Assembly (NCBI GenBank): GCA_964016885.1
Contig: OZ024742.1
Location: 341,992,001-342,056,000, forward strand
Direction: 5' to 3'
DNA length: 64,000 nt
From: Eledone cirrhosa
Lineage: Eukaryota
The position numbers and the translations under genes are program-made. Of the stretch, positions 1,670 to 28,910 are shown one piece after another. The notes under the pieces were generated by a model that searched no databases, was not told where the DNA came from, and was given only the letters and a program-made list of their open reading frames with translations. Within the stretch, counting starts at the first letter, position 1. Each line of letters starts with the position of its first letter.

Positions 1670-1709
<40 letters not shown>

Positions 1710-1713
<4 letters not shown>

Positions 1714-4742: not shown

Positions 4743-4853
<111 letters not shown>

Positions 4854-5200: not shown

Positions 5201-5276
<76 letters not shown>

Positions 5277-5325
5277 GACGTAAAATAAGAAAATTATAAA
5301 AATTAACTTATTTACTAAAATTTCA

Positions 5326-5407
5326 CTCCAACTAATTAGTTTCTGAAAGGAAATAAACATGGTTTCCGAATGGAACAACATGGAGAATACCTTTCGTCAT
5401 CAGGAAG
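5326..5407 (-). ncRNA. Type I hammerhead, palindromic stem III
   Basis: cttc-CTGATGA-c gaaagg..cctttc a-GAAA-ctaattag-TT-ggag. Confidence 0.72.
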
Positions 5408-5866
5408 TCAATTCTCAGCTAAGTTCCCAGGCGATGCGTGGACACAGGGAACTTATACAAAAATAATTCAGTGGATGGAAAAAAGGAAGCGAGGACTAAA
5501 TTCCAAGACATTGAAAAAATCACTGCCTACTTGGTCGGTGGCAAATTCAAAAGAATCAATCACGTGACATCGAGGTTAATCAGTGAGGAGTGGGGTGTTA
5601 AGAAGACAGTAGCCGAACTATTACTATGAACTATAGTAGCAGTTTTGGCAAATTTTTGCTCAACAAAATAATTTGGAGATAATTATAAAGAATTAGTATA
5701 TCTACCAACATATATATACAGATGCATACCTATGCTAGCAAATATATAGGTTTTGTCTTAGTAACTTTGTGGTTCAATGCAAGGGGATGCAGAACAATTA
5801 TATGAAAGACGTAAAATAAGAAAATTATAAAAATTAACTTACTATATATACATGTGTGTGTGTGTA

Positions 5867-5926
<60 letters not shown>

Positions 5927-6968
5927 GATATATACACACACACACATATATATATGTATATATTTACTGATATATATATATATATGTGTGTGTGTGTGCG
6001 TGTATCTGTGTGTGTGTGTGTGTGTGCGTGTATCTGTGTGTGTGTGCGTGTATGTGTGTACATAACAAAGAAGAAAAGGAAGAAGTAATAAAGTCAAAAT
6101 AGGAAGAACAGTATAATTATCCTGAGAGTTCCACGAAACCAGTGGCATTACACGAACTAACAACCCTTTAGTTAGACCTGTGGGAAAGTCTTACCGCTAT
6201 ATATGTAAGTTGAATCTTGGTGTACAGCTTATTCTGGATGGCTCAGTGTTAAGTAGAAGGTAGAGTTGTCTATGGAATACTCAACCACATGTAGACGTAG
6301 GCATGACTGAGTAGTTAAAAAGTTCGCAGTAAGTCTTTCCCACAGGTTTTCACAGTTTCTGGTGTGCTAAATAGTTTCACCTCCAAGGCTTGAATCCACC
6401 CGAGACTATTGCTGTATACACCCGAAGAAGGCGCCAGGCATTGGGATTGAACCTGAGACTACATGATTGTCAACTGAACTTCTTAGTCATTCGATTATTC
6501 CTACACTATCGACAATCTATCGACTTTCGTCAAATCAGACCGAGAAAACAATGTTTCCGTTGGTCTTTCCAATTGCTAATACTATCTATCAGTCGCAACT
6601 CCAGGTAGAAGGACATAACGCATCGCTCGGTCCAGGAATCGAACTCACGCCTTTTGCAATAGCTGAGAGAATGCCTCTACACTATAGGTGAGAGATAAAT
6701 CAACATCGATCTTATTGCATAGCATCTTAGGCAAGTGTTGTTACCATAGTATTGGATCTACCCAAGCCTTGTGAGCAAACATGAGTGGATGAAATCTGTG
6801 TAGAAAGCCATTTGTGATTGAAGGATGTGTTCTTGTCAAACAATGTTATTGGGATTAGGATGTGAAGTGTCCACATGTTTCTGAAATACTCAGCCTCTTA
6901 AATGGTATTTTAATGTAGAGGTTTCACTTAATACAACTGAGTGTTCATCGTAAAAACTTACAAAGGTC

Positions 6969-7362
6969 CATCATCATCATCATCATCGTTTTCGTCATCG
7001 TCTTCATCATCATCACCGTCGTGGTCGTTATTATGATTATGATGATTATCATCATCATAATCATCATCACCATCATCATTAGCCTTATCATTACCATCAT
7101 CGTCGTCATCATCATTATCGTCGTCATCATCATCGTCGTCATCATCATCATCATCATCGTCATAATCATCATTATCATTACCGTCATTACGATCATCAAT
7201 GTTGTCGTCATCATTGTGATCATCATCACCATTGTCATCATCATCATCACCATCATCATCGTCATCATCACCATCATCATCATCATCATCGTCATCAGAA
7301 TCATCATTGTCGCTGTCGTCGTCGTCATCATCATTATCATCATCATCATCATCATCATCATC
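6969..7362. repeat. (CAT)n degenerate microsatellite
   Basis: Direct reading. Confidence 0.95.
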
Positions 7363-7916
7363 TAGGTTGCCTTTGTTGAATTTTTAAAAACCAGAATTAG
7401 TCGTTTAGTTTACATATTGAGACCCCAACCCATCCTATTTATTTTATAACGTATAAGATTTCTAGTAATGTCCTTTTTTTGTCAGGTATAATGTGTTTTA
7501 ATGTCTAAATACAATTAATTGTCGCAGGAATGCTACCACTTAAAATAAAATTATGCCGGGGATAGATTAGCAAAATTTAATAAGTGGGGGAGTGGGGTAG
7601 AACATGAGCGGGGATGGTGGAAAAAATATGAAAAATTAATAAACGGGGGGGGGGGGCAGGATTATTAAAGACCTAAAAGTGGAGAAGACAGCTTTAAATT
7701 GTAGTTATAGAAACAACTAGAGCAAAACTACATATAGATAAATGTATGTTATTAAAATCTTCTAAAATACTTTATTATTTATGATTATTTCATCTGAAGA
7801 TGTTAGTAAGGAAAAATAAAATTGGGCGAATGTATTGGAATACCAATTATAGTCAACATAAACTGATCAAATTTTATATATGTATATATATATATAGATG
7901 TATTTGTGCGTGCATC

Positions 7917-7955
<39 letters not shown>

Positions 7956-8175
7956 ATATATATGATGAAACACAGATACCAACACATCTGTATATATATT
8001 GCAAAAGAATGTTTAGCCAGAATGAAGAATACTAATTATTATACTACAGTTTGTCCATATCGATTTAAAATAATAAATCAACAAAGACGAACTGCATTGT
8101 CAAAAGGCTATGATGTTTAGACACATTTAAATTTCAAAATCAAACCTGTTCCGTAGATAAGTTTAAACTTTAAAA

Positions 8176-8235
8176 TCCAAATATGTTTCGAGATAAATAA
8201 GTGTAGGAATATCATGTCCTGCTCTCCTCAGTAAA
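8176..8235 (-). ncRNA. Decayed type I hammerhead
   Basis: ttta-CTGAGGA-gag..ctc-GAAA-cata-TT-tgga; weak stems. Confidence 0.45.
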
Positions 8236-8766
8236 CATCCAGGGACAAATTGATATGCTTCACTTCTAAATAATTTAAAAGACTGTGTGACGCACATGGT
8301 TTAACAGTTTCTAGCTAGTCTCATAACCGTACTGCTAGAAATAACAGTCGTATATATGAGGCGGCTTTCAGCTCAGACTAGGAGCAGTTATATTATTAAG
8401 TGTAAGGAATTCTTTTACAATGGAATTAGCTCACGGTTGGGTGCGGATGCATTCATGTATATGTGTGTGTTCGCATGTATCTGTGTGTTTCTAAATATAT
8501 TGTTAATAACTCCCTCTGGTCGAGCAATCTTTGAAGTGTGGGGACTGCTGGAAAGCTTCCATTACTCATACTTCTCGCCCCCTTCACCACCTCTTCTACG
8601 GCTTCGATATAAATACCCCCTCCGCCTCCGTGGTATTTTCTTCTGGGTTATAAGAGGCTTAGTTCTGTTTCTCGACCGTTATATCGCGTGACTGTCTCCC
8701 CCTCCGCCTTTTGGGATTCTTTCTCACGTCGTGTAGACGCGTTCTTGAGACTAGTAAAATGAGGTA

Positions 8767-8856
8767 TCCTCTTGATAAGTCGGCAGACCTCGCAAGGACT
8801 CTATATCTTTATGATGTATTGTTTTTGTTTATGCCACGAAACTACGTAGTCGAGGA
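8767..8856 (+). ncRNA. Type I hammerhead, U3-A8 core, GUC site
   Basis: tcctc-TTGATAA-gt(c)ggca..tgccac-GAAA-ctacgtag-TC-gagga. Confidence 0.78.
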
Positions 8857-9084
8857 ATCTAGGAGCAGTTTAGGTATGATACATTTTATTACTAATTATA
8901 TCTAAATGTTTCTTCTCTCTTCATAATGTATTTTTAACTCTGATACTGGTTCAGTCTAGTTCAACCGGATTGGTCTGTCCCAGTCATTCATTGAGCAACA
9001 TCGGTGAAGTTGGCACCCTTAACTCACGGTTGGGTGCGGATGCATTCATGTATATGTGTGTGTCCGCATGTATCTGTGTGTTTC

Positions 9085-9144
<60 letters not shown>

Positions 9145-9356
9145 GAAGTAGAATATCTTTCAATCGTTCGAGGGGGTTGTACCGAAACAATGGGCAGATC
9201 AACGCTGATGTTATTGTATTCGGATTAGATTTGGCAGCCGGATTAACTTTCTCTTTAAAGGTTACAATCTGTTTTGAGAATAGTTTATGGACAAATCTAG
9301 CTGCTGTATGTATCTCTGAGTTCACCTCTGTCACTCATTGGGAGACCGAGTACTTG

Positions 9357-9362
9357 TTACTA

Positions 9363-9438
<76 letters not shown>

Positions 9439-9960
9439 CACTACCACTACTACTACTACGACAACCACCACCATCACCTCCACCTCTACCTCTACCATTA
9501 CTACTACCATCAAGACCACCACCACCGCCACCTTCAACTCTACCACTACTACTACCACCACTACAACCACCACCACTACTACTACTTACTACTAATACTA
9601 CTACCACCACTACAACCACCACCACTACTACTACTTACTACTACTTACTACTACTACTACTACTATCACTACTACTACGACAACCACCACCATCACCTCT
9701 ACCATTACTACTACCACCACTACCATCACCACCACCACCACTACTGCTATTACTACTACCACCACCACAACCGCCACCACCACTACAACTACTACTACCA
9801 CCATCACCACCTCCAACTCAACCATTACTACTACCACCACCGCTACAACCACCACTACTACTACTACTACTAGTACTACTACTACTACCACCATCACAAC
9901 CACCACCACCACTACAACTACTACAAGTACTGATACTACTACCAACACCACCATCACTAC
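9357..9960. repeat. (CTA/CCA)n microsatellite
   Basis: Direct reading. Confidence 0.95.
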
Positions 9961-10097
9961 TTCTACCTTTGTGAAGGTGCGTGGCGTAGTGGTTAAGGTT
10001 CTCGGCTCACGATCATGAACTCGTCTCCCCGCGGCAAGACTGTCCTTCAGCAAGACACACAGTTCACGTTGCTCTAGTGCTTACCGCTTGATAAAAT

Positions 10098-10167
<70 letters not shown>

Positions 10168-10177
10168 CAGCAGCAGC

Positions 10178-10233
<56 letters not shown>

Positions 10234-10291
10234 CAGTAGCAGTAGTAGTAGTACTAGTAATAGTAGTAGCAGCAGCAGGAGTAGCAGCAGC

Positions 10292-10341
<50 letters not shown>

Positions 10342-10355
10342 CAACTGCAGCAGCG

Positions 10356-10386
<31 letters not shown>

Positions 10387-10393
10387 TAGTAGC

Positions 10394-10447
<54 letters not shown>
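10098..10447. repeat. (TAG/CAG)n microsatellite
   Basis: Direct reading. Confidence 0.95.
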
Positions 10448-10448
<1 letters not shown>

Positions 10449-10584
10449 TATCTACAAGTAGTGCTACTGGTACGTCTATGACAGAAAAATAAGTGAGAGG
10501 AGCAATGGAGGTGATACCGTAATAATAATTTTAGGCCCAAGTCCTGCAATTTCTATGGTAGGTGGGTGTATGTCTGTTAAATTG

Positions 10585-11268
10585 ACTAGATTGGACTGGT
10601 ACTCTTGACTGGATTGGACTGGTACTCTCGACTGGATTCGACTGGTACTCTCGACTGCATTGGACTGGTACTCTCGACTGGATTCGACTGGTACACTCGA
10701 CTGGATTGGACTGGTACACTCGACTGGATTCGACTGGTACTCTCGACTGAATTCGACTGGTACTCTCGACTGGATTCGACTGGTACTCTCGACTGGATTG
10801 GGCTGGTACTCTCGACTGGATTCGACTGGTACTCTCGATTGGATTGGACAGGTACTCTCGAATGGATTGGACTGGTACTCTCGACTGCATTGGACTGGTA
10901 CTCTCGACTGGATTGGACTGGTACTCTTGACTGGATTGGACTGGTACTCTCGACTGGATTCGACTGGTACTCTCGACTGCATTGGACTGGTACTCTCGAC
11001 TGGATTCGACTGGTACACTCGACTGGATTCGACTGGTACACTCGACTGGATTGGGCTAGTACTCTCGACTGGATTCGACTGGTACTCTCGACTGGATTCG
11101 ACTGGTACTCTCGACTGGATTGGGCTGGTACTCTCGACTGGATTGGACTGGTACTCTCGACTGGATTGGACAGGTACTCTCGAATGGATTGGACTGGTAC
11201 TCTCGACTGGATTGGACTGGTACTCTCGACTGGATTGGGCTGGTACTCTTGACTGGATTGGACTGGTA
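10585..11268. repeat. 23-bp minisatellite (gactggattggactggtactctc), about 30 copies
   Basis: Direct reading; 23-aa periodicity in the ORF track. Confidence 0.95.
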
Positions 11269-12107
11269 CTCTCTGGTGTCCAATAATCATCCGCCGTCCC
11301 GTGCTATTAATTTTTCAGATTTTTTTCCAACACCCTCCCCCGCTTATTAAATTCTGCTAATATATCTCCGGCGAATTTTTATTTTAAATGGTAGCATTCC
11401 TGTAACAATTCATTTTCCTTAGACATTAAAAGCATGTATGACAAAAAAAGTGCATTACAAGAAATGCCATACACTATAAAATAAAGATGACCGTTTGGGG
11501 TCTGAATGTGCAAACTAAACGACTAATTCTGGTTTTTAGAAAAATCAATGCAGCAGCCTAGAAAAATTTCCGATTTTCCAAACCCCTTGCTTATTCCAAA
11601 CCCCCTGCTTATTCCAAACACCCCGCTTATTCCAAACCCCCTGCTTATTCCAAACCGCCTCACCGCGCTTATTCCAAACACCCCGCTTATTCCAAACCCC
11701 CTGCTTATTCCAAACCGCCTCACCGCGCTTATTCCAAACCCCCTGCTTATTCCAAACACCCCGCTTATTCCAAACCCCCTGCTTATTCCAAACACCCCGC
11801 TTATTCCAAACCCCCTGCTTATTCCAAACACCCCGCTTATTCCAAACCCCCTGCTTATTCCAAACACCCCGCTTATTCCAAACCCCCTGCTTATTCCAAA
11901 CCCCCTGCTTATTCCAAACCCCCTGCTTATTCCAAACCGCCTCACCGCGCTTATTCCAAACACCCCGCTTATTCCAAACCCCCTGCTTATTCCAAACCGC
12001 CTCACCGCGCTTATTCCAAACACCCCGCTTATTCCCACTCCCTGCTTATTCCACCTCCACACCACCCCGCTTATTCTACCCCCTTCGTATTATTTGGGAC
12101 CCGAGAG
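11269..12107. mobile_element. Tc1/mariner-type MITE with TA duplication and internal 18/24-bp minisatellite (about 11575-12075)
   Basis: TA|ctctctggtgtccaataat ... attatttgggacccgagag|TA; interrupts a SINE; diverged relative at about 7375-7680 in reverse orientation. Confidence 0.75.
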
Positions 12108-12529
12108 TACTTTATATTATTGACCCCGAAATGATGAAAAATAAAATTAACCTCAGGAAGGATTTGAACTCAGAACATAAAGGGCTGAAAGTAACACCGT
12201 AAAGCATTTTATTTCTGGTTGCTCTACTGATTTTACAACCAATCCATTGTGATAATTGTAACCACGGACTATGGAAGTGGAGGGGGTGAAGGCAGCTTCT
12301 AGAATTATCCCCAGAATATGTCAATTGAGGTTAAAATTAGGTTTATAAATTAAAGATATAATTAAGTTTATTTGTTCAGAATTTAAGAGTCTGATAATAA
12401 CTCTTTCATTCTATAACTTTTATATTTAATTGGTAAATCACAAGTTATTATATTTGAAGGTATTGAAAGAGAAATATTCCCTGCAACTATACTGGAGGTG
12501 TTAAGGCTGTTACAGCGATGGTTAATAGT

Positions 12530-12676
12530 ATTGTTATTGTTGGTGGTAGTGGTGATGGTGATAATGATGGTGATGATGATGGTGGTGTTGGTGATGGTGT
12601 TGGTGATGATGGTGTTGGTGATGACGATGATGATGTGTAGTAGTAGTAGTAGTGGTAGTGTTGTTGGTGGTGATGT

Positions 12677-12765
<89 letters not shown>

Positions 12766-12791
12766 GGTGGTGGTGGTGGTGGTGGTGATGA

Positions 12792-12854
<63 letters not shown>

Positions 12855-12862
12855 TAGTAGTG
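12530..12862. repeat. (GGT/GAT/AGT)n microsatellite
   Basis: Direct reading. Confidence 0.93.
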
Positions 12863-12911
12863 ATATAACCTATTTTTGTCAGTTTTATTGTAGTTATCAT
12901 TACCTCATTGA

Positions 12912-13720
12912 GGGCAGTAGATTGTCAGTATCGGTAGAGCGTCGAACACCATGCTTTGTGTCATATAGTTACGGCCCTTTTCGTTCTGAGTTCAAATCCC
13001 GCCGAGGTTAACTCTGCCTTTCATTCTTACATGGTCAATAGCAAAAACTACCAGTAACGTACTGGGGTCGATTTAATCGACTTTCCCCCCTCCCCCCAAA
13101 TTGCTGGTCTCGTGCCAAATGTTAAAACAATTATTATTACTTTATTGAAGGCGGTGGATTGGCTGAATCTGTAGAGCGTCAGACAACATGCTTTCGGCAT
13201 AGAGTTACGGCCCTTTAGCATCTGAGTTCAAATCCTGCCGAGGTTAGTTCTGCATTCCATCCATACGACGCAGGGCGTCGATAAAATAAAGCACCAGTAA
13301 TGCGCTGGGGTCGATTTAACCGACTTTCCCCTCTCCCATGGCCGTCTGCCTATAGTAGAACTCATTATTATTAGAATCCTGTCGTGGTTAACTTTGCCTT
13401 TCATCCTTACGGGGGTCGATAAAATAAAGTACCAGTAATGTACTGGAGTCGATTTAATCGACTTTCCCCTTCAAATATCTGGCCTTGAACCTAAATCAGA
13501 AATCATTACTATGACAGTATCGGTAGTGCGTCAGACACCATGCTTTACAGCATAGAGTTACGGCTCTTTATGTTCTGAGTTCAAATCCCGCCGATGTTAA
13601 CTTTGCCTTTCATCCTTACGGGGTCGATAAAATAAAGTACCAGTAATGCAGTGGGGTCGATTTAATCGACTTTCCTCTCCGCTCAAATTACTGGCCTTGT
13701 ACCTATACTAGAAATCATTA
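12912..13720 (+). mobile_element. Head-to-tail cluster of four Nin-type SINE copies
   Basis: Repeated gagttcaaatcc..cctttcatccttac..gtcgataaaataaagtaccagt..gtcgatttaatcgactttcc units. Confidence 0.85.
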
Positions 13721-14195
13721 TATTGATATTATTATTGTTTCTATTATTCATATTATTGTTATTTTAACCTGTTGTAGACTACCTGGAATCTGTTCAGTGA
13801 ACAATAACAATAACTGGCCATTCTGTTTAGTAGTTTCATGGCAGAGATTTGCAGGTATTTGCAATGTGTCAGATAATATAATATTCCACGAAATAACGCA
13901 ATTGTGACATGATGTGGATAATAAGGAATAATTCATTTTTAATAATTTCCTTCTTCTCTCAACCCTTTTATTCCTTCAGAGCGATTCTTGAAGGTAATTT
14001 CTAGACACTGAAGGAAGAGTTTAAAGTTCAACCTTTTGTAAAGGGGAGGTAATTGTCGTTTAAATAGCTACAAATATCTTAACATTTTCACCAAAGTAAA
14101 ACCCACAGAAGCAGGCAGAGATCTAACTAGACACTCTCTTCCATTTTAACAAATCTCTTTCCTTCCTTCTCACTCTTTCTTCTCTTGTTACTATC

Positions 14196-14270
<75 letters not shown>

Positions 14271-15756
14271 TCTCTCTCTCTCTCTACTTTTGTGTGTCTA
14301 CCTCTTTCTTCCACGCTATCTTCACTTCTCTCTCTTCTACTCTATCACTGTCTCTCTCTCCCTCCCTTCTCTCTCTCTCCCTCTCTCCCTCTCTTCCTCT
14401 CTCTCTCTCTCTCTGTTTACTTTTGTGTCTCTACCTCTTTCTTCCACGCTATCTTCACTTCTCTCTCTTCTACTCCATCACTGTCTCTCTCTCCCTTCTT
14501 CTCTCTTTCTCTCTATCTCACCCTTCCTCTCTCTTCCTCTCTCTTTCTCTCTCCCTTCGTCTCCATCTTCTCTATACTCTCTTTTTCTCTCTTCCTCTCC
14601 CAGCTATCTCTTTCAAATTCTTGTGGGAAGTAAATAACGCTATAACTCTCTCTATTCTAATTCAACTATCTCTTTCCTTCCTCTCCTCTCTGTCTCTTTC
14701 AGTCTCTTTTCCTCTCTATCTCTACCTCTTTCTCTTCTTCTTTCTCTCTCTGCCTATCTCTAACTCTTGAGAGAGATAAATTACATTAAAAACCAAAGAA
14801 CTGCTCATTCGTCCACCCACTCTCTGTAGGATTTGAACTCAGACTGTAAAGAAATAAAACCACTTAGTGTTCAGTTGGTTTTAACTATTTTGCTACCAAA
14901 CCACCTGAAACAGGCCCTAGTGCCACGTTACAGAACTATTTTAAAGTGATTATAACCTATTTAAAATTCTTCCATCATAATTTTAAGCTAGAACCTTTAA
15001 TGTTACAGACACCAACTTAATGGTTTCTGATTTAGACACAAGGCCAACAATTTTAGCGAGTGGGGAAAGTCGATTAAATTGATCCCAGTACGTTAATGGT
15101 GCGTTATTTTATCGACCCTGTAAGGATGAACGGCAAAGCTAACCTTAGAATGTAAGGGCCGTATCTATATGCTACGAAGTATAATGCCCGACATTCTAAC
15201 GATACTACCAATCCCCACCCTAAACCCCAACTTAATAATGAGAAAGTGGTATGAATTAACAAACCCTTCCGAATTCTTGTTACTTTCCAAAATTATTTGA
15301 AAATCATAGGCAGTGTCTTTCGTTAGAAATATGGTAACGAAAGGGGTAATTTTTAAAAGGTTTTATATATTTTTGTTGAATTTTACCGGTTTCAGCTGTT
15401 TACAGCCTTTTTCAAAAGGATTTTTGTTGCAGTCTTTCAAAAAATGTTTTTCGTTTCTGTCTATCTCACGTTGTTGGCCGCTTATGTTCAGTGAAAAATC
15501 AAAAGTTGGTAGTGCACTCAATCCAAAAGACGAGTTGGATACGGATTTGCTGTCTTTTTATCTTCCTATTTTGTTTTAACGTCCAATTAAAAATATATTA
15601 GAACACCTCATAAAATACATTGAATCACTTAGTTAAGGCTTTTCCTCTTTCCAGAATTGATAAAATATAGTACCAGTCAAGTACTGGGGTCGATTTAACC
15701 GACTTGTTCTTCCAACCTCCAAAGTAATGCTGGTTTTGTGCATCAATGTAACACTT

Positions 15757-15883
15757 TTCTTCTTCTTCTTCTTCTTCTTCTTCTTCTTCTTCTTCTTCTT
15801 CTTCTTCTTCTTCTTCTTCTTCTTCTTCTTCTTCTTCTTCTTCTTCTTCTTCTTCTTCTTCTTCTTCTTCTTCTTCTTCTTCT
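15757..15883. repeat. (CTT)n microsatellite
   Basis: Direct reading. Confidence 0.95.
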
Positions 15884-16264
15884 AATTATTATTAATATTA
15901 TTATTACTATTGATATTATTATCACCACCACCACTACTACTACTAGTGTAGTAGTAGTAGTAGTAGTAACTACTACTACTACACTGATATTTTATCTATG
16001 GAATAGTTATTTTGCTCCTATCCAGAGGCGATCTCATGCGGTATTATGTGAAAATTCGTGAAATAACACATTCTATTTTTTCCCAGTGGTCTTTTTTGCA
16101 GTGGAATCTCTCTGGAAACAAATTTATTGTATGTATGTTTCAGTGTGAGTGTGTAAGTGTGTGTGTGTACTTATATATATATATATATATATATATATGG
16201 ATATATATTTATATACATATATATTTGTATATATATATATACATATATATTTGTATATATTATG

Positions 16265-16306
<42 letters not shown>

Positions 16307-16663
16307 GTATATATTATTTGTATATATTATGTATTCATATATATATATATATAATGTATATATTATGTATATATATTTGTATATATTATGTATATATATA
16401 TATATGTATATATGCATATATGAAGCTATCAGTTTGTATGCAATACATAATGAAATAGAACACATCTATATATTATTTACTATATATATAAGACATAAGT
16501 GAATTATTCGTCTCATTTAAATTGTATCTATACAATTATTTATTTATGTACATACACATCTACCCCTCGAACCCATTCAAATAAACATATATATATATAT
16601 ATATATATATATAAACACATATATATATATAAACATATATATATGCATATATATATATGTATT

Positions 16664-16732
<69 letters not shown>

Positions 16733-17268: not shown

Positions 17269-17329
<61 letters not shown>

Positions 17330-17762
17330 ATGTGTGTATATATATATATATTTATTTATGTATTTACATATGTATATGAATATATATGTGTGTGTCTGCA
17401 TGTGTGTGTCTGTGTGTGTGAGTGCATGTGTGTGTATATATATAGATATATGTGTGTGTGTGTGTGTGTGTGCGTGTGTGTGCGTGTGTATGTGTGTGTG
17501 TACATATATGTATATGAGAAATTATTTGGTTGGGGAAAAAAACAAAAAACAAAATCAAAGAATTGCTTGTAGAAACAACATGGACTAGCAGGTTATTCTG
17601 GTGTTCTTTATTTGGTAAGTTTTCTTTCAATCTTCCATTCTTTTATTCTTTTGTCAGTGTGAAAAAAAACACACCACTATATTAAGTAAAGGTCTTATTA
17701 AAACAGTTTAATGAATAGCCATTTCACATGTTATATTAAGTAGATTGAAACAACTATATGTA

Positions 17763-17798
<36 letters not shown>

Positions 17799-17799
<1 letters not shown>

Positions 17800-18173
17800 T
17801 AGCCGAATAACCCGCACCTTGCTGCGTTTCACACATTTTTTTGTAAGAAAATGATGATTGATTTTAAATCAGTGATATAATTTATGGAGAAAAACTTCAT
17901 TAAGGTGTCTTAATTTTATTGAAATTTGCTGAAAGTTTGTGAATAGGGATCATATCTTGTCATTTACCTATGGTCTAAATTTCATATAAATCGAAGGGAA
18001 AACATTTTCAGCGGGGGTTTGTTTCCCCAGTGAACCCTTTGATTAAAATGAAACATACTTATCCAAGAACCCTGGGCAATGTAGTTTCAGAATATATATG
18101 TTTATGGGGAGGTCTATCTCCAAAACCATAGCAGGAGTTCGTGAAAAAACAAACAAACGGACAAGAAGTACAA

Positions 18174-18177
<4 letters not shown>
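17799..18177 (-). mobile_element. Non-autonomous Helitron
   Basis: 3' end cgcagcaaggtgcg hairpin then CTAG|T; homologous to 34327-34826. Confidence 0.75.
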
Positions 18178-18267
<90 letters not shown>

Positions 18268-18426
18268 TATAGATTGAAGGTACACATAGATGCGTGTTGT
18301 GTTAAAGCGAATAACTATGTATCTACCCTGGGAGTTTAGTTAACATTACTTATTAAGGAGTACGCTCAGATGCAACCGGTACTAGCTGTGAAACCCATAT
18401 TAATCTCGTCAACTTATTATTATTAT

Positions 18427-18464
<38 letters not shown>

Positions 18465-18465
18465 C

Positions 18466-20643
18466 TAGGGCGGGTAAAATTCCCGAGATCCATGGACGAG
18501 TTCTCTCCAGCGTTCTCTGTCCTTCATTATCGCTGCCATGTCCTGCATCTCCAACAGACCACAGTGTCTGTCCTTAGGGCATCAACATATGTTAACCTTG
18601 GTCTTCCTCTTCCAGTGTGTCCATGCAGGGGCTCCCACAGGAGCACTGAATGCAGTGTCAACTCTGGATGTCGGTGAGCATGTCCAGCTAACCTCAGTCT
18701 CCTCTGTGTCACTTTTGAGCTGACTTTTGAGAGGCCCCCATACAGCTCTGAGTTTTTCATCCTCAGTGTATACTGATTAATGTTCAGAGCCATCCTCAGC
18801 ATTCTGGTGTAGCACCCATCCACCATCTGAGTGAGTTTCTTGGTCAGTATCCAAGTCTCAGACCCGTACAGCAGCACAGACTCCACTACAGCAATGAAGA
18901 GGCGGATCTTCAGGTCCTCACGTAGGTCCGACTTCCACACCGATCTCAAGCTGTGGCACGCCGCCCAGGCTTTGCTCTTCCTCTCAACCACATCATCTTC
19001 CGTATTCCCAATCTTTGCTCCCAAATACAGGAAGTCCTCAACCAATTCTAGCAGCTTCCCGCCTACATTAGTGATCCCCTCTGGCTTCTCAACATTCTCT
19101 ACCAGACATTTTGTCTTAGTCTCATTCATTCTCAGCCCCACACTCATCGACACAGTCTCAACCTCCTGCATCAAATCTTCTGCCTCCTTCACTGTGTTTG
19201 TCACCAAAACTATGTCGTCGGCAAATTCAGCATCCGATATCTTTTTCGCCTTAACTCTCCTGCTCTGAGCCGGTGTTACAGTAAATCCAGAGTCCTGATG
19301 TTTCTCCAGTGCAAGGCGCATACAATAGTCCACTACGATGATAAAAAGGTAGGGAGCCAATGTATCTCCCTGGAGCACGCCAGCCAGTATCTCAAAGAAT
19401 TCTGTCATCCCATCAGGTGTAATGATTTGGGCTTGGTGTTGGTGTAGAGCAGTAATATCAGGTCCACTATCTTCTTGGGAATTCCATAAGCCTGTAAGAT
19501 CTTCACCAGGCAGTGACGGTCCAGAGAATCAAAGGCCTTCCTAAAGTCAATGAAAACCATGACCGCAAGAAGGCACTTTGCTCTAGCTCCCTCTAATATC
19601 CTCCTCAGCATCAGGATGTGACTGGTGGTTGATCCTCCTTCTCTGAAGCCGTTCTGGTTGTCCCTGAGCTTCTTCTCCATCTCGGATCCTGTTAAGAATC
19701 ATCCTGTTGAGGGTCTTTGCCACAAGTGACGTCAGTGAGATTCCCCTGTAGTTGTTGGTGTTAGAGAGATCTCCCTCCTTTGGCACTAGGACGATGTTAC
19801 TGATCCTCCACTGATTCGGGGCAACTCCTTTCTCCAGTGCCCAGTTACAGAACCCCAGGATGATATCATCAAAATCACACCACTTCATCACCTCTGATGC
19901 CACTCCATCTTCTCCATGAGCCTTGCCCTCCTTGATCTGCTTCTTGGCTCTCTGAAGCTCCTCTCTGGTGAAAGGCTGTCTCAATATCCAGTTCCTCAAA
20001 CAGCTGCCTGATCTCCCCAGTGTTCTGGGCTGTGGAGGGCGGCTCTCCTAGTAGGGTCCTAAAATTGTCCAGCCATTTCTCCTTCCTATCCTCGGGCCCT
20101 GTTCCCTGGATCTGACTCCAACACCTTCTCTTCCTCCCTGTGATCTCGATGATGATCATCCAGCTCTCCTTACATCCAGACCTGTCAACCGCTCTCTCCA
20201 CACTTCTGATCTTCTCTATCAGTGCCTCCTCTCTGTCCTCAGTATAAGCGGTACAGATTTCTTCCCTCATCACTTCCACATTCTCCTTCCTCTCCTCCGT
20301 AGGATCAGCATAGAATTGGTCCTTGACAGCTTTCAGGTGTTCTCTGGCTGCACACACTTTTGGGTCAGCAGAGCTGACATGCTTGCTTTTGTTCTTTCTC
20401 CTCGGCACCAGGGTCTCACTTGCTTCCGCCACTGCATTGATGAAGTACCCGTACCTCCTCGTCACACTCTCTTCAGTCCATCCAATCTCTCTCTCCTCTG
20501 TCTCTCCACACAGAACACTGAACCTGTTCCACTGTGAACCTCTCCTGTAGCTTATCATCTTCCTTGAAAACTCCCCAGTCATAGATTGCTCTCAGGGGCT
20601 GAGCCTTGCTCTTTCTTAAGCTCACCCGGACCTCACTCATAAC
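18466..20643 (-). mobile_element. RTE-group (RTE/RTEX/Proto2-like) LINE, RT and 3' portion, frameshifted
   Basis: ORF pieces NYRGISLTS, NQNGFREG, FIDFRKAFDS, GVLQGDTLAPYLF, FADD, FLYLG, LLYGSETW; ends at GSREFYPP* directly against a (TA)n tract. Confidence 0.92.
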
Positions 20644-21036
20644 ATAATTGTTCTGGGTATGACATTAAACAATCCAGTGGCAAGGCTCCAGTTCGGGAGT
20701 TCAGGAGCAGTGGGGAATGTGGAGTTATCCCTTAGTTGTCATGTCTCCCAGGTCTGCTCTGGCCCGGAGTAGTAGTACATGTTAGGGCCCCATTTATGGG
20801 TTAAATAACTACCTTACTCGAGTGGTGCCGGTAAGGTATTGTCAACTATTGAAAAGAAATATGGAGAGTCTATCTAACAGCACTAGGGTTAGAACCCCTA
20901 ACTACACTGTCAAGGAGCAGTCTGGTCGTTATGACTCTACTGGCTTAGAACTACAGGGAGGTCCAGTGGATGATGGATCAGCTATCTCTGAGACAAATAT
21001 AAAGAATTCAGTTTTGTCCTGCAGAAGACCATCAAA

Positions 21037-21686
21037 ATGGGCACTTTGAATGTGAGGACTATTCGGACGCTGGAGAAGAGGGAGGAGTTTGGTCATCTAT
21101 TCGAGGAGAGTGGTATACAGATACTTGCGATCCAAGAACACAGGATCCTACACGATGAGCCCGTGAGGAGTGTGATGATTGGGAAGATGAGCCAGCTCAT
21201 CACCACATCGGCAGTGAGGAACATGACCAATGCTGCAGTGGGAGGAGTGGGTTTTGATTTCAGCACAAAAACCAGTCTATTGGTGAGGGAAATAATACCT
21301 GCCTCCCCGCGAGTGTTGAAGGTGATCTTCAATGGAAACCCAAGACTGAGTCATCTTACCCTATAGTTCAACCGAGGGAGACAGTGATGTGAGTGCGGAA
21401 GAGTTCCATGAGGAGGTGTGTAGAGCTGTCACACCACACAAGCACACGACATCCTGGTTGTTCTAGGGGACTTCAATGCACATCTGAGTAAGGAGGGCAG
21501 TGAAGATCCTTGCTGGTACTTCTATAACAACACCAACCGAAATGGAAGACTACTGAGAGACACCCTGCTGGAGGCGAACTTGATAGCGACCAACCTAAGG
21601 TTTAGGAAGAATCCGGGAAAGATATGGACCTACATCTCAGATATGCACCTGTCCAAGTCCCAGATTGATTTCTTTCTGGTGAGGAA
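21037..21686 (+). pseudogene. APE endonuclease domain of the same LINE, inverted relative to the RT
   Basis: GTLNVRT, ILAIQEHR, LGDFNAH, TNRNG, WTY and SQIDFFLVR motifs; ends at (TA)n before the expected SDH motif. Confidence 0.9.
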
Positions 21687-22587
21687 TATATATATATATA
21701 TATATATGAATAAAGTTAGTCCTTCATCAGTGATCTTCCAACCATCATTGGTATTTCATCGCTTTAAAGACCATATACCTCCGGTTGGTGCGAGCAACGG
21801 CTAAAAAAAGTTGTTGGGACAGGTAATTAAAGGGGACACGAGTGTAAACAAACAAAATGGTGAAGCAACGAAAAGTGGGGAAAAAGGAGTCAAGTCCCAA
21901 ATTTCTATGAATTTAAATTCGGTGAAATCGTGAACGAAAGAGAATAAAGACCATCAAACCTGGTTGGAATGTAAGCAAGGAAGGAATTCCGTACATGTCT
22001 AACGGGAGGAAGAAGGGATCTAGTCTGTGATTTCGGTGAACGTAAGTTCTGTGAAATCGTAGACGAGAGAGAGAGAAAAAAAAGCGACCTGCCAGACCAA
22101 GGGTGCGAAAGAAAAGAATTACGCACAGGTCAAACGGGAAGAAGGAGGAGGAGGAGAGGTAGTAACAGAGAATGAGTGAGTGAAGGGTGAGGAAGAGGCT
22201 AACAGAGAGAGTGACTGCTAGAGAGGGTAAAGATACAGAGAAAGCGAAATAGACGTGTAACAGCGGGGGAAAAGATATGTGTAAATATGAGAAAAACGTG
22301 CTGCTGGGTTGCTAATGGGTTACATATGAATAAAGTTAGTCCTTCATCAGTGATCTTCCAACCATCATTGGTATTTCATCGCTTTAAAGACCATATACCT
22401 CCGGTTGGTGCGAGCAACGGCTAAAAAAAGTCGTTGGGACACGTAATTCAAATTAGAAGCTACATTCTTAGCGAGTATTTATTTTCTAATTTCAAATTTC
22501 AAACCTGCTCACTGTTTCAAAACATACTTCCTTGTCATTTATACTCGCTAAGAATGTAGCTTCTAATTTGAATGGAAGGAGATGGGT

Positions 22588-22658
22588 GATGTGTTGGTGC
22601 AATGGTATCACAGTGGTCTGGATAACCAAAGATGTGGGTTCGACTCCCATGTACATCA
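22588..22658 (+). ncRNA. tRNA-like cloverleaf (anticodon position GGA, no long variable arm) inside a repeat element
   Basis: GATGTGT/GTACATC acceptor, GTG/CAC D-stem, TGGT/ACCA anticodon stem, GTGGG-TTCGACT-CCCAT T arm; A box TGGTGCAATGG, B box GGTTCGACTCC; T5 about 10 nt downstream. Confidence 0.7.
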
Positions 22659-23314
22659 GTACTCATCTTTTTCCATTTATCTGAGGGTTCTAAACCCCAT
22701 TATCAGGCTAAAATTTCTTTAGTCAAAAATACGGTGAAAGCTATTCTATTTTCTAATTTCAAACCTGGTCACTGTTTCAAAACATACTTACTTGTCATAT
22801 ATATATATATATATATATAGTTAGGGAAGAAAAAAATTGCTTATTGTGATCCAGTTCGTGGTTAAGAAAGCCAGTTTCATGGACGGTTTCAACGTACGGT
22901 TAGGGGTAACTCCACAAGTTTGTAAGAATTCCGTTCAATCTTGGAGTATAAAGTATAAAAGAGAAAACACAGATAAGCATTAAGAGAAGTATTCTATCCA
23001 GGTATTTACGACCATTTCATTGGTAAGTGCAACCTTATATTGCTATGCTGCAAATAGCAGCCACTCAATGATAATTGTTGTTCACGTCCGTTTCGACAGC
23101 TAGATCCGAACTCAGTCGGGGTCCTGACTCTTTCCCTATTACCCACTCTACTACACTAAGTATCGAGTACTCTGGTGTGTTATGGTCTACCTGGTTCATT
23201 ACCACACTTTCTCTGTTTATATATATATATATATATATATAAACATACATATATATATATTCCATTAAGGGTGGAAGCAGCGATTCTTTGCTTAAACTTT
23301 AATTTGATATTTTA

Positions 23315-23370
<56 letters not shown>

Positions 23371-23381
<11 letters not shown>

Positions 23382-23607
23382 GAATAGCTTTCACCGTATT
23401 CTTGACTAAAGGAATTTTAGCCTGATAATGGGGTTTAGAACCCTCAGATAAATGGAAAAAGACGAGTATTGACGTACTCGTCTTTTTCCATTTATCTGAG
23501 GGTTCTAAACCCCATTATCAGGCTAAAATTCCTTTAGTCAAGAATACGGTGAAAGCTATTCTATTTTCTAATTTCAAACCTGCTCACTGTTTCAAAAAAT
23601 ACTTACT

Positions 23608-23610
<3 letters not shown>
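23371..23610 (+). mobile_element. Fold-back element, 98-bp arms plus 38-nt tail, same family as 22541-22798
   Basis: 23371-23468 is the reverse complement of 23475-23572; (TA)n on both sides. Confidence 0.9.
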
Positions 23611-23681
<71 letters not shown>

Positions 23682-23882
23682 TTAAGGATACTATTTATGG
23701 TTATGTATATACTAAAACTTTTTATAGTTATATATATTTTAAACCCTAAACAGTGAAAGACAGTAATTTATTACTACCTTATTACCAGTAAGATAAATAG
23801 CTCAATGTAATAACATCAGTTGTTCTACAGAGCAGTTATATAGAATTCACAGGAATCAAAGTTATGTTCAAACCATTTATTA

Positions 23883-23927
23883 GCTTACAATTGTTTCATC
23901 CAAACCGAGGTTTGGAGTCTTCGGAGC
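23883..23927 (-). ncRNA. Hammerhead-like motif in left arm of large inverted repeat
   Basis: gct-CCGAAGA-c tccaaacc tc ggtttgga t-GAAA-caattg-TA-agc. Confidence 0.6.
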
Positions 23928-26114
23928 ATTTTTTCAATGTTTGTATACATACGTGACCTCCTTTCCAACGCAAGAGACATACAGATACATATGTATATAT
24001 TGATGCACAGTGGGGTGACAAATATTATATTATTCCTGAATGCCAATTTAAATTCAAAAATTAAAATCATATTAAAACAGAATCAAAGCAAAATTAAAAT
24101 TAAAATACAACATCGGCAGTTAACGTAGATAATGTAAGAGGATGGTTTGTTAGTCAGTTGTAGTAGTTATTGTATGCATTAGTTACACGTGGGGCATGCA
24201 CGTGTGTCTTGTTTATATATGAGTATTGTGCGACAGGGTGTTATATGCAATACAAGCACTTTAAGCGGGTAATCAAGAGTATTATGGAGGTTGTAGTGGT
24301 AAGGTATTTTTTGTGTATGTTAAAGAAGCTTGTGTGCAGAGAAATAGTATAAATGAGAAGCAAAATAATGTTATGTTTTTTGTATACACCACCATTTTCA
24401 CAATTCAGGAGACGTAATATATAGTTTATATGTCCTTCACATAATTAACGATGATTCCGTATTGGATGTTTGATGTATTAAGTTAAATTATTATAGCTTG
24501 TTGCGGCTCAGTGTTCTTTAATCCAATTTAATAGAGCAGGTTGTTTCTGTTGCGAGAATTTACATCGTTTTATTATCCGGAAGTATGTGTGTGATTAAGG
24601 GGAGTTAATGCGTGAGGGGAGGTAACTAGCTGATTTCTATAACTAAATTTATTATTCCAACATACATTAAAAGGTGTCTCAATTGAGTCCCTTATATATA
24701 CGGTTATATACAGTTTCCAAATTTAAGTATCCTATCTTAAATTACAGTCTACTGTATCATGAAGTACTAAAGGTATCTATATTAGGATGATTACTCTATC
24801 ATAGAGTCCTACCACTGAATATTCCATACGAAGAGTCAGATCTGCATATCAAAGTTCTTTGTAAATGTAGTCTACTCACAGAACCTGTCAGGGGCCCTAT
24901 TAGAACCACGTCTATATAACCCCTGGTAAGCTCTGGGTCAGCGCATGGCTGATTGCATGGCAAAGTTAAATATCTCTAGGGTAGACCAAAAAACATTTCT
25001 CACTTACAATGTCATTAATCTATCTATCAAGTTATACATGTATGTATAACTCACATACCACTTGTACATAATTCATTGTACTCAACATATAGGTTATATA
25101 GCTCTTTTATGTTAATAAATTAATGCTCTATTTATCTAATGATAGCACTCCATACATACAACAACATTTGCACAAATAATTCATTGCTGAATTCGGTGTT
25201 TAAAGTTTACATATAATTATATAGTGATATAATACAGTCTAAGTAATTGAAAGTAATTATACTAAAAGTAGTAGTACTTCATGATAGAGTAGACTGTAAT
25301 TTAAGATAGGATACTTAAATTTGGAAACTGTATATAACCGTATATATAAGGGACTCAATTGAGACACCTTTTAATGTATGTTGGAATAATAAATTTAGTT
25401 ATAGAAATCAGCTAGTTACCTCCCCTCACGCATTAACTCCCCTTAATCACACACATACTTCCGGATAATAAAACGATATAAGTTCTCGCAACAGAAACAA
25501 CCTGCTCTATTAAATTGGATTAAAGAACACTGAGCCGCAACAAGCTATAATAATTTAACTTAATACATCAAACATCCAATACGGAATCATCGTTAATTAT
25601 GTGAAGGACATATAAACTATATATTACGTCTCCTGAATTGTGAAAATGGTGGTGTATACAAAAACCATAACATTATTTTGCTTCTCATTTATACTATTTC
25701 TCTGCACACAAGCTCCTTTAACATACACAAAAAATACCTTACCACTACAACCTCCATAATACTCTTGATTACCCGCTTAAAGTGCTTGTATTGCATATAA
25801 CACCCTGTCGCACAATAATCATATATAAACAAGACACATGTTCATTCCCCCACGTGTAACTAATGCATACAATAACTACTACAACTGACTAACAAACTAT
25901 CCTCTTACATTATCTACGTTAACTGCCGATGTTGTATTTTAATTTTAATTTTGCTTTGATTCTGTTTTAATATGATTTTAATTTTTGAATTTAAATTGGC
26001 ATTCAGGAATAATATAATATTTGTCACCCCACTGTGCATCAATATATACATATGTATCTGTATGTCTCTTGCGTTGGAAAGGAGGTCACGTATGTATACA
26101 AACATTGAAAAAAT

Positions 26115-26159
26115 GCTCCGAAGACTCCAAACCTCGGTTTGGATGAAACAATTGTAAGC
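26115..26159 (+). ncRNA. Hammerhead-like motif in right arm of large inverted repeat
   Basis: Identical to 23883-23927 on the opposite strand. Confidence 0.6.
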
Positions 26160-26380
26160 TAATAAATGGTTTGAACATAACTTTGATTCCTGTGAATTCT
26201 ATATCCAAAGATGGCAGAAGAAAATGGGTGATTAAAACTTATGAAGGTCAAGAAAACTCGGGTGTTCAAGCGCCGCCACATTGAATGTTATAATCAACGA
26301 ATTATTAAATTAAACATGTTTTTACTATACACACACGTCATCTTGACGGCCACTATGTTAACATACACACACACACACAC

Positions 26381-26421
<41 letters not shown>

Positions 26422-28718
26422 GTAGCGGCGCTTGAACACCCGAGTTTTCTTGACCTTCATAAGTTTCAATCACCCATTTTTTTCTGCCATCTTTGGTCCT
26501 CTTTTTTCTTTTTCTTCTTTCCCCTCTCCTTCCCCAACGTCTCTTCTTTCGTTTCCTTATTCTTACCAGCGGCCAACCTGGAGCAGTCTGCAACTAATCC
26601 AGGCTCTGCTGCACTTCTGGCCGAGGAGGGTAAACTCTCCAAATATAGGTCGCTTTCCAACAGGTTTGTGGTTGAGCCCGTAGCAGTGTCGACAGCTAGT
26701 GTCCTTGGCCCTAGGACCACCTCCCTACACACCACCATCGGTTTGGAGTTGGCTACCCACAGGTGTGAACCTCGCTAGTTGGAATGACTCTTCCAACGCA
26801 CCTCTCTCACCATCCTCTGGGGAAAGGCCTTCTCTATTCTGTCAGCCGGGACCGCGTGGGCTCTCATTTGTATATAATAGTGAGAGATAGGGAGAGCGAG
26901 AGAGATGGAGGCAGTGAGTGAAAAAGAGAGAAAATCATCACACACATGCAAGGGAGAGATCGTTCAGCAAATTATCACTCATAAAGATTTAACTGAGAGT
27001 CATGTTGACCAACAAAAGAACATCCCCTCTCCAGACCTGAGTACAAATAAAGAGAGTGAGAGATATAAGGGAAAAATCGATCCCAGTACTAAACTGCTAC
27101 TTATTTCTCGACCTTGAATGGATGAAAGGTAAAGTTGACCTCGGTGGGATTTAAAGTGGGAGAACGGAGAGCCGACAAAACATGGTGTGGTAGGGACCCG
27201 TAACTTAAGAGAGAGACGTAGGAATGCCATATTTATATACGGAGATTTTATTATTATTTTTTGAAACCTGGCAAAGAACATCCTTTCACCAAACCTGAGC
27301 ACAGCAGATTTCTTTTTCCAGAGAAGGATACAGAGAGTGAGAGAAAGGAAATGAGGAAGAAATATAGAGTACGAATCGACCCAGCACTAAACTGGTACTT
27401 TTTATCGACCTCGAATCAAATAAATGAAAGGCAAGTTGACCTCAGAGATTTGAACTCAGAGACCAGGTAGCCGATACGAATACCACAAAGCACTCTATCC
27501 AACGTTCTAACGACTCTACTAATTCGCCGCCTTGTTACCTGTTTTAAACTTAACTATTTTACCTATTTTAAACATACCTTTAAAAAAAGAAAGCCATTGT
27601 ACACTTCACTAAATTAATACCTTTGCTCTGCTAACACTAGACATAACTAATCAAGAAAGATTTGATCTTTGCTCTTTGAACTCTGCTGCTGGTAATCGAA
27701 CTTTGTGGAGAGAGATATCTCATGTTAATGCGCAGTCTGCAACTGGCGGAGTTTAGCGTCACAAAATCAAGAAAGAAATCATTCGAACCAGAGATCTTTC
27801 AACAGGAATCTTAGTTCACTCACTATCAGAGACATTATACTGTGTCACATTTTCTCTCACAACCTCACCTAACAGCAAACTAACAGAATAATGGTAAATG
27901 AAGACAACAGACCTAAACCACCGTCCAAATGGTTCATGTATTTATATTTATATGAATTGATATGTATGTATGCAACCGGCAACCCCACCAAGTTTATTTG
28001 GTGAGGAGGATGATTTTGGACACCCTACAGGACAAAAACAAAACCTGACAAAGGGCGGGACACCCGATCGCTTGGTTAAACCACTGAGGGTGAAGGACCC
28101 CTAGCATTTGTCAGGGCATCCTTCTAGGAGAAGGCAACTCTGGAAACTGGCATAACTCCGATATAAAACCTGCGGCTCAGTAGTTACCGAAGATGTTGAC
28201 CTTTTCTTCTTTTCGGATTATAGCTACTGTGGCTCAGAGAGTGGGATTTGGCTCAGTGCACAGTCTTCCCTCACTTTAAAAAATATCTTCACGCACAGGC
28301 ATTACCGTACGGTAAGGGTAATTATAGCAGGTATAGTGAACTTTTTAAAATTTATTTTTAAACTTTTTCTTATTTGCTAAACCTTGATTATATATGTTCT
28401 GGCTCGTTAATTTATTAACCTGACATAGAACCACATTAGTATACGGTTGGATAATACATGTGTCCCTATATGCATTTTGCATGTAGGAAAACATACTTTA
28501 TTATTATTGATCTCCCCTGGTCGAGATAACATTTTGGTCGTTTTAACTGCTGCTATTTCTAGTGGCAGTACATTGACCTTTCCGCCCCTGCCTTCTATCT
28601 TTACACACGGCACTAGACAAGATTGTTTCTTCATCATACACTCTCATCCGGGAATAGTTCTGTATGGCGCCAGTTCGTGATTTGAACTCGGGAATTTGAT
28701 ATTCTCCGAGTGAGAAGA

Positions 28719-28802
28719 ACCCTCTGACGAAAGTCTTCTTCTCAATGTATTTCCGCATGGATTATCCATTTATTTTGAGACTTGAAACCGCGCGGTAAGG
28801 GT
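28719..28802 (+). ncRNA. Type I hammerhead, canonical core
   Basis: accct-CTGACGA-aagtct..agactt-GAAA-ccgcgcgg-TA-agggt. Confidence 0.85.
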
Positions 28803-28869
28803 AATTATAGCAGATATAGTGAACTTTTTAAAATTTATTTTAAAACTTGTTCTTATTTGCTAAACCTTG

Positions 28870-28910
<41 letters not shown>

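Follow-up and report, generated by a model that had tools for sequence, protein, structure and literature searches.

The genome of Eledone cirrhosa (assembly GCA_964016885.1) includes a 64,000-nt stretch of contig OZ024742.1 (positions 341,992,001 to 342,056,000 of the forward strand; hereafter, the window, that is, this stretch at its full length) in which short non-coding repeats are duplicated over part of their length and stop at a (TA)n microsatellite, and the question that this locus raises is why they stop where they do. The preliminary description of the window noted that (TA)n takes over from the duplicated end at precisely the point where a short AT motif stands in the internal copy, and proposed that a nicked or cruciform (TA)n 3' end pairs with this motif in a tandem or circular RNA and primes reverse transcription. 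The answer favored here, with moderate confidence, is that the units were inserted by the Penelope-like elements (PLEs) of the same genome, with reverse transcription starting, in an RNA longer than the unit, at a short TA motif that pairs with the nicked (TA)n end.

Partial tandem units and their recurrent 3' ends

The window is AT-rich animal DNA that is dense in microsatellites, with 7.4% of the bases in runs of at least three TA repeats, (TA)>=3. Re-examination of the six quoted examples by self-BLAST of the window and direct reading shows that all six are copies of abundant non-coding repeat families, denoted A to F, with units of 260-620 nt. The range 5272-28874 for which the pattern had been reported leaves out the family A copy (1-763), which is quoted as well. 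The copies, together with two further features of family E, are as follows.

1-763, plus strand: family A copy, unit 597 nt, 1.33-mer, starting 33 nt before the window; repeated stretches 1-165 and 598-763 (period 597, identity 95%); 3' end ...CTAATTTATAT(T), adjoining the TA run 759-774
5268-5841, minus strand: family B copy (locus L111), unit 531 nt, 1.08-mer; repeated stretches 5268-5310 and 5799-5841 (period 531, identity 100%); 3' end ...CGTCTTTCATATA, adjoining (AT)n 5201-5272
8426-9093, plus strand: family C copy, unit 593 nt, 1.13-mer; repeated stretches 8426-8500 and 9019-9093 (period 593, identity 97%); 3' end ...TTTCTAAATATAT, adjoining (AT)n 9088-9140
21701-22452, minus strand: family D copy (locus L171), unit 620 nt, 1.2-mer; repeated stretches 21701-21831 and 22321-22452 (period 620, identity 97%); 3' end ...CTTTATTCATAT, adjoining (AT)n 21687-21707
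22453-22478: inverted stub of family E, 26 nt
22484-22803, plus strand: family E copy, unit 260 nt, 1.23-mer; repeated stretches 22484-22543 and 22744-22803 (period 260, identity 92%); ends ...CTTACTTGTCAT beside (AT)n
23373-23609: family E head-to-head pair (locus L251), both arms adjoining (AT)n; minus arm 23373-23470, ending ...CTATTTTCTAA; plus arm 23474-23609, ending ...TACTTACTTG
28304-28878, plus strand: family F copy, unit 483 nt, 1.19-mer; repeated stretches 28304-28395 and 28787-28878 (period 483, identity 95%); 3' end ...CCTTGATTATATAT, adjoining (TA)n 28872-28907

All six examples bear out the reported pattern: at the place where (TA)n begins in the terminal copy, the internal copy shows a short TA run before reading on into the next unit. 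The internal runs are TATAT in A and B, ATATAT in C, ATAT in D, ATTTATA in E and TATATAT in F; the two copies of family A stay identical for 3 nt beyond TATAT (...TATATTT) before (TA)n sets in. No sequence similarity is detectable by BLAST of family against family between units of different families, co-inserted copies aside. Family C is young, with 40/40 scored matches 100% identical over 90 nt, and family E has a tRNA-like head at 22588-22658 (tRNA model, 48 bits).

Each family was searched for in the 3.0-Gb assembly with a query of 70-256 nt taken from just upstream of the end. The first look returned 1,666 candidates for A, 211 for B, 948 for C, 1,857 for D, 414 for F (2,407 with the whole unit), 44 for E and 388 for family P, a protein-coding PLE that is described below; at most 30 loci per family, with 1.5-kb flanks, were then read from the 40 best-scoring matches. 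The family A copy of the window is one of these loci (L141), with an arm of 791 nt composed of unit parts 404-597 and 1-597.

In families A, B, C, D and F, (TA)>=3 is present at the 3' flank of 155 of the 193 arms, and 149 of these 155 arms end at recurrent positions, in agreement with the earlier proposal of fixed 3' ends on short TA motifs of the template. The ends fall at unit position 596/597 in 24/25 arms of A; at 529-531 (25/43) and 114-120 (17/43) in B; at 593 (16/34) and 431-434 (17/34) in C; at 618-620 (17/27) and 39/49 (10/27) in D; and at 483 in 23/26 arms of F, for which rarer ends near 110 come from a first sample biased toward full-length copies. In family E, two zones, 243-260 (33 of the 60 arms) and 189-222 (21 arms), account for all but six ends. 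A single 3' peak per family, as had been anticipated, is not what is observed: most families have two end sites (531 and 115 in B, 593 and 431 in C, 620 and 39/49 in D, 483 and about 110 in F, the two zones in E), 40-162 nt apart. Contigs from four sequencing runs were compared with the family C site of the window (7400-9350). Those of other organisms neither cover the unique flanks nor bridge the insertion, and thus yield no orthologous empty site; loose (TA)n ends among the contigs, at 8500 and 8931, merely coincide with both known end sites of family C.

In the internal copy, which represents the template, every recurrent site falls where a 3-7-nt TA run ends. In A, C and F, this is the unit's single longest TA run, and in family D three of the four TA runs of at least 4 nt are the three used sites. 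A run that long is expected at a random position with a probability of 0.002-0.07 per site, for a summed log10 P of -20 over 10 sites, before a correction of about 7-fold per site that allows the run to end within 3-4 nt of the site. The second sites are still improbable by chance when taken on their own; their importance is that they are internal to the units, a location at which no remnant of captured target TA would be anticipated.

Template, inverted pairs and Penelope-like layout

Of the 193 arms, 71 are longer than one unit, the longest spanning 2.30 units; the 5' ends are scattered, and the sequence crosses the unit boundary unbroken. Copies of more than one unit with scattered 5' ends imply a template longer than the unit, tandem or circular, which upholds this part of the preliminary description. 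As a comparison of the circular with the tandem form, the repeated stretch of the longer-than-unit arms of family C has 13 shared non-consensus letters versus 78 differences in 5,026 nt, a count in which differences that arose after insertion and those of the template are indistinguishable. Hot spots of 5' ends are found near unit position 388-404 in family A (13/30 arms in two 20-nt bins spanning 381-420) and near 842-845 in family P, about 220 nt before the end, where both arms of many pairs meet exactly; both fit a defined 5' end of the RNA. Many arms of family E (loci L251-L280), including both arms of pairs, start at unit 105-117, near the 3' end of the tRNA-like fold, and it may be that this fold, and not a ribozyme, provides the signal for RNA processing in the family.

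Ribozyme-like motifs are found in some of the other units. By pattern search, family F has a hammerhead-like core in which CUGACGA and a 7-bp helix II are followed by GAAAC, a loop with the palindrome CGCGCG, and a helix I that matches (GAAAC CGCGCG GUA), family B has CUGAUGA...GAAAC, family C has the 3' half only (CGAAAC-UACGUA-GUC), and families A and D have no complete core. PLE hammerheads are reportedly minimal, with palindromic loops. Rfam searches detected no hammerhead in the window at the gathering threshold, in positions 1-30000 at E<=5, in two 151-nt stretches at E<=10 or in six PLE loci at the gathering threshold, and the 5' ends of family F show no peak at the predicted hammerhead cut. 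The metazoan non-LTR (long terminal repeat) retrozymes are likewise small non-coding tandem repeats, are thought to move via circular or multimeric RNA and, according to a published proposal, rely on PLEs (Cervera and de la Pena 2020, PMC7229834; Li et al. 2026, 10.64898/2026.07.22.740005). Possible points of likeness to retrozymes are the CUGANGA...GAAAC cores (families B and F) and, in F, a palindromic loop that follows GAAAC; in contrast to retrozymes, no unit has an Rfam hammerhead match, A and D lack a complete core, C has only half of one, and the copies, which are known here from the DNA, mostly span 0.1-2.3 units without forming long arrays.

A frequent arrangement is the head-to-head pair, in which both outer ends are 3' ends and both lie in (TA)n. 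Designating the two end sites of a family S1 and S2, 33 of the 43 pairs combine S1 with S2, and none is S1/S1 or S2/S2, even though S1/S1 pairs should be at least as detectable as mixed ones, given the positions of the queries. Mixed pairs make up 19/21 in B, 11/12 in C, 2/5 in D and 1/5 in F; pairs also occur in E and P, and there are none among 30 arms of family A. Together with the complementarity of the starts to the target and the T-rich tract beside the used sites, both described below, this regularity suggests that one RNA with two start sites is used, one start site for each cut DNA strand.

Endonuclease-bearing PLEs have been described as forming partial tandems, with an inverted copy alongside that is 5'-truncated and with a tail on one side, and as preferring (TA)n, the (TA)n preference being reported for Naiad, Neptune and Hydra (Craig et al. 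2021, PMC8557442). By analogy, the layout of the units is this published insertion signature: all six window copies are partial tandems, inverted 5'-truncated arms occur together with one-sided tails, and there is a bias to (TA)n. Such a layout, which the preliminary description had not recognized, would account for the choice of target, the partial tandems and the inverted arms alike. The likeness to the Neptune, Hydra and Naiad elements extends to frequent 5' truncation and to partial tandems in the form of pseudo-LTRs, and the units also resemble the non-autonomous relatives in Chlamys, with their head-to-tail multi-copy insertions (PMC8557442). Unlike those PLEs, the units here encode no protein, and the tails are 40-162 nt compared with 30-40 bp (PMC8557442).

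Protein-coding PLEs, with a reverse transcriptase (RT) plus a GIY-YIG endonuclease at the C terminus, neither of which is carried by the units themselves, are present in the same genome. A search of the genome for GIY-YIG gave 10,596 first-look candidates, and 150/150 of those scored were above the Pfam cut-off. Nine PLE open reading frames (ORFs) have the PKIHK and DKG motifs, a linker of the form CX4-5CxxC, and a GIY core that contains cysteines, so that the sampled coding PLEs appear Neptune-like by motif, under the clade criteria of PMC8557442. One locus (L074) is a 5-kb coding element with pseudo-LTRs that ends ...CTTTCTAATATATA(TA)n, and its internal copy is identical as far as TATATA and then leads into the ORF start. 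Family P (loci L221-L250) ends at S1 and 68 nt upstream (...TTTTTCTTTATA), with mixed pairs again. A fragment of this family is present in the window.

4851-5200, minus strand: 5'-truncated pseudo-LTR end of family P, 94-98% identical over 213 nt to the pseudo-LTR ends in L074, L075 and L078; 3' end ...CTCACTTGCTAA, adjoining (AT)n 4745-4850

By analogy with these elements, the short units are likely to be non-autonomous passengers of PLEs.

Choice of the start site

The sequence of events that we propose is one in which (TA)n would be nicked by the PLE endonuclease, and the complex of enzyme and RNA would pick a small interval of the RNA, some few to about 20 nt long and marked by a T-rich tract. 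There, the 3' end of (TA)n would anneal to the TA run and so set the first copied base. Both strands of the target would often be extended from two sites of one RNA, yielding inverted pairs and a one-sided tail, and copying would stop early, which would make the 5' ends variable and leave partial tandems. Under this scheme, the start site is likely to be set by the protein and fine-tuned by pairing with the nicked (TA)n.

Fine-tuning of this kind would fit the small-scale scatter of the ends, which tracks local TA/AT matches. Arms of family A end after TATAT, TATATT or TATATTTGTAT; in the second zone of family E, the ends come after GAAA, GCTAT, TTCTAT or TCTAAT, with (AT)n next in each case. 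One family B arm, inserted in (CT)n, stops 5 nt short of the usual end, at ...TTCT|CTCT, and one family F arm in a (CAT)n target ends before the TA run.

Several observations weigh against the proposed pairing or limit its reach. A TA run is not sufficient by itself: the 9-nt and 7-nt TA runs of family B are used by none of its 43 TA-flanked arms, and nine more runs of at least 5 nt (families B, C, D and F) do not serve as recurrent ends, a single use being seen for each of two among the nine. The dominant junction of family A, ...TATATT|TATATA, overlaps by 1 nt plainly and by 5 bp if G:T wobble is admitted. The loci that were read are ranked by identity and are not a random sample. BLAST of the units against the 20 sampled PLE loci reveals no shared sequence, the family P fragment aside, and because of this the link to a particular coding partner is drawn from the layout only. 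Pairing is possibly dispensable, because the sole PLE tested in vitro starts without homology to the cleaved DNA (PMC11167929). What sets used sites apart from unused runs is a T-rich tract: TTT is found in the last 14 nt of 10/12 used sites versus 0/11 unused runs (Fisher p=7e-5), a p-value that is descriptive because the motif was spotted and tested on the same data. Of the earlier proposal that the TA motif primes reverse transcription, then, what stands is the rare TA run at each recurrent site; such a run is not enough by itself, and the used sites also have a T-rich tract.

The first alternative to be weighed is that the starts are fixed by recognition between protein and RNA alone, as reported for Poseidon of the green anole, with no need for base pairing to the target. 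The TA runs would then be a by-product, either relics of target TA from the formation of a tandem master copy or a part of the recognized motif. The unused longer TA runs of the same RNAs and the T-rich tract, just described, speak for this alternative. It does not readily accommodate the TA runs at the second sites, which lie inside units where a junction relic is not expected, the ends within a zone that fall on successive AT/TAT matches, or the two arms in non-TA microsatellites that end a few bases off, at or before the motif (n=2). On this evidence, recognition without pairing is a possibility to be kept in mind, although a rather doubtful one, and the start set by protein and adjusted by pairing is preferred.

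The comparison with Poseidon from Anolis carolinensis, for which reverse transcription in vitro starts at two internal sites of the RNA, both DNA strands are cleaved and extended, and a multi-copy transcript is proposed as the template (Frangieh et al. 2024, PMC11167929), is close in several respects. There, as here, two neighboring internal starts delimit the stretch that becomes the ‘tail', the target is AT-rich, and both strands are used. In contrast, the Poseidon start lies in an AC-rich stem-loop that is stated to be non-homologous to the cleaved DNA, whereas all the recurrent starts here can pair with (TA)n over 3-7 nt. Furthermore, no difference in start between the strands was seen in Poseidon, and the arms of the pairs analyzed here are always at different sites.

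Elements of this kind have been described before; what is new, to a modest degree, is that the start sites match TA. Three points are added: complementarity between the starts and the microsatellite that is the target, seen in each of the families examined, the coding PLE included, and in contrast to Poseidon; a T-rich tract that marks the used sites; and asymmetric tract lengths, as shown below. A statement that a TA run lies at every end site was not found in the accessible part of PMC8557442, and TA-complementary start sites were not found stated in the accessible parts of PMC8557442, PMC11167929, PMC7229834 and 10.64898/2026.07.22.740005, supplements aside; the word ‘microhomology' occurs 0 times in these four texts, and the supplements may bear on TA-complementary starts. 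PLE insertion is poorly understood, with only one element studied in vitro, and short passengers that were recently inserted, in their thousands and with ends readable to the base, are available in this genome. The resulting constraints, namely starts complementary to the target, a T-rich tract beside the used sites and different sites for the two arms of a pair, are testable. In annotation, such units are readily filed as unclassified short interspersed nuclear elements (SINEs) or as tandem repeats.

Origin of the flanking (TA)n and other features of the window

The proposed scheme presupposes that (TA)n was there before the insertion. Among the 107 single arms (families A, B, C, D and F; loci L031-L200), 54 have (TA)n at the 5' flank as well, compared with 6% of the window positions; that half of these arms are flanked by (TA)n on either side favors insertion into existing tracts. 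It is therefore very likely that (TA)n is the insertion target, as the preliminary description held. The two flanks are, however, unequal. The median TA tract is 20 nt at the 3' flank versus 6 nt at the 5' flank (Wilcoxon p=1e-9), and the longer tract is at the 3' side in 83 and at the 5' side in 22 of the 107 arms; in the 49 arms with at least 6 nt of TA on both sides, the medians are 30 nt (3') versus 15 nt (5'), the 3' tract being the longer in 36 arms and the 5' tract in 13. In family C, the longer tract is 3' in 14/14 single arms. The palindromic target gives no ground for polarity; either the enzyme adds TA at the 3' end or the 5' junction loses target repeats.

The first of these options bears on the alternative that the RT of the element synthesizes or extends a large part of the flanking (TA)n, recopying the short TA motif in a telomerase-like manner instead of meeting a tract already in place. 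Apart from the asymmetry itself, this would fit the summed TA tract, which has a median of 62 nt in pairs, with their two 3' ends, versus 29 nt in single arms (p=0.0008), as well as the position of PLE RTs as the sister group of telomerase RTs (PMC8557442). The asymmetry could equally result from loss of repeats at the 5' junction, or pairs could form more often in long tracts; the 5' (TA)n of half of the single arms far exceeds the background, and the published work takes (TA)n as the target (same source). An element-made tail, which the preliminary description had named as an outcome that would refute it, thus appears improbable, but the asymmetry prevents the target reading from standing without qualification.

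In telomerase, a DNA 3' end made of repeats pairs with a short complementary stretch of RNA beside the region that is copied. The proposed start resembles this in that a short-repeat 3' end would pair with RNA, and PLE RTs are the closest relatives of telomerase RTs (PMC8557442); it differs in that the whole element is copied after the alignment, whereas repeated copying of the motif is only possible, as hinted by the tract asymmetry. A more far-reaching version, to which we assign a small probability, is that PLE RTs are telomerase-like at the first step: a U-rich tract would place the enzyme, the (TA)n 3' end would align on UAUA, and this stretch would be recopied, so that TA microsatellites would be not only targets of the elements but also extended by them, as self-made landing sites (TA runs make up 7% of the window).

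It is very improbable that the units are SINE-like partners of a long interspersed nuclear element (LINE) with a microsatellite tail, or Helitrons, which insert between A and T, with the extra part-unit arising by later tandem duplication: the window does contain an RTE-like LINE, family E does have a tRNA-like head, and Helitrons do insert into AT, but two fixed ends and strictly mixed head-to-head pairs are foreign to both kinds of element, the 5' ends are scattered, the unit ends lack TC...CTRR, the junctions do not read CTRR-TC, and the partial tandems, which recur in independent insertions (71/193 arms), arise at insertion and not by later duplication.

The RTE-like LINE of the window (RVT_1, DUF6451 and a fragment of the endonuclease), at 18942-21686, is a 5'-inverted insertion, with the 5' part on the plus strand (approximately 20645-21686), the remainder on the minus strand (20644 down to 18942) and about 72 nt missing where the orientation switches, in the manner of twin priming; the LINE's border adjoins the (TA)n beside the family D copy. 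This LINE seemed to be interrupted there, and 19/19 other copies of it read on without (TA)n, as a paralogous empty site for family D would; the candidate was rejected because the LINE is a 5'-inverted insertion of the twin-priming type with its border at (TA)n.

A further family, G, known from its copies in the window (direct reading and self-BLAST), also borders (TA)n.

775-868, plus strand: family G stub, ending ...TTCCTTCGT beside (TA)n 869-919
1537-1670, minus strand, and 1711-2270, plus strand: family G copies flanking (TA)n 1672-1711 (direct reading and self-BLAST)
22820-23218, plus strand: longer family G copy, ending beside (TA)n 23218-23260 (direct reading)

By self-BLAST, positions 780-901 match 2182-2303 at 96%. 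The plus-strand copy at 1711-2270 has a short inverted arm on its 5' side, and its two ends are 88 nt apart on the unit, the second one lying upstream, on the inverted arm. This copy also has an open stretch without a Pfam match.

Other features of the window include a tRNA (68 bits) at 38458-38529 on the minus strand, which is probably a real gene or a very young copy, and a fragment of a mariner-type transposase at 37376-37984 on the plus strand (Pfam Transposase_1, E=8e-17). Large simple arrays lie within 10584-11273, 30204-32515 and 39246-41117; they comprise a 23-nt unit repeated 30 times, 2.3 kb of (GTTG)n and a 1.4-kb G-rich array of 19/41 nt that is adjoined by a 31-nt unit repeated 16 times.

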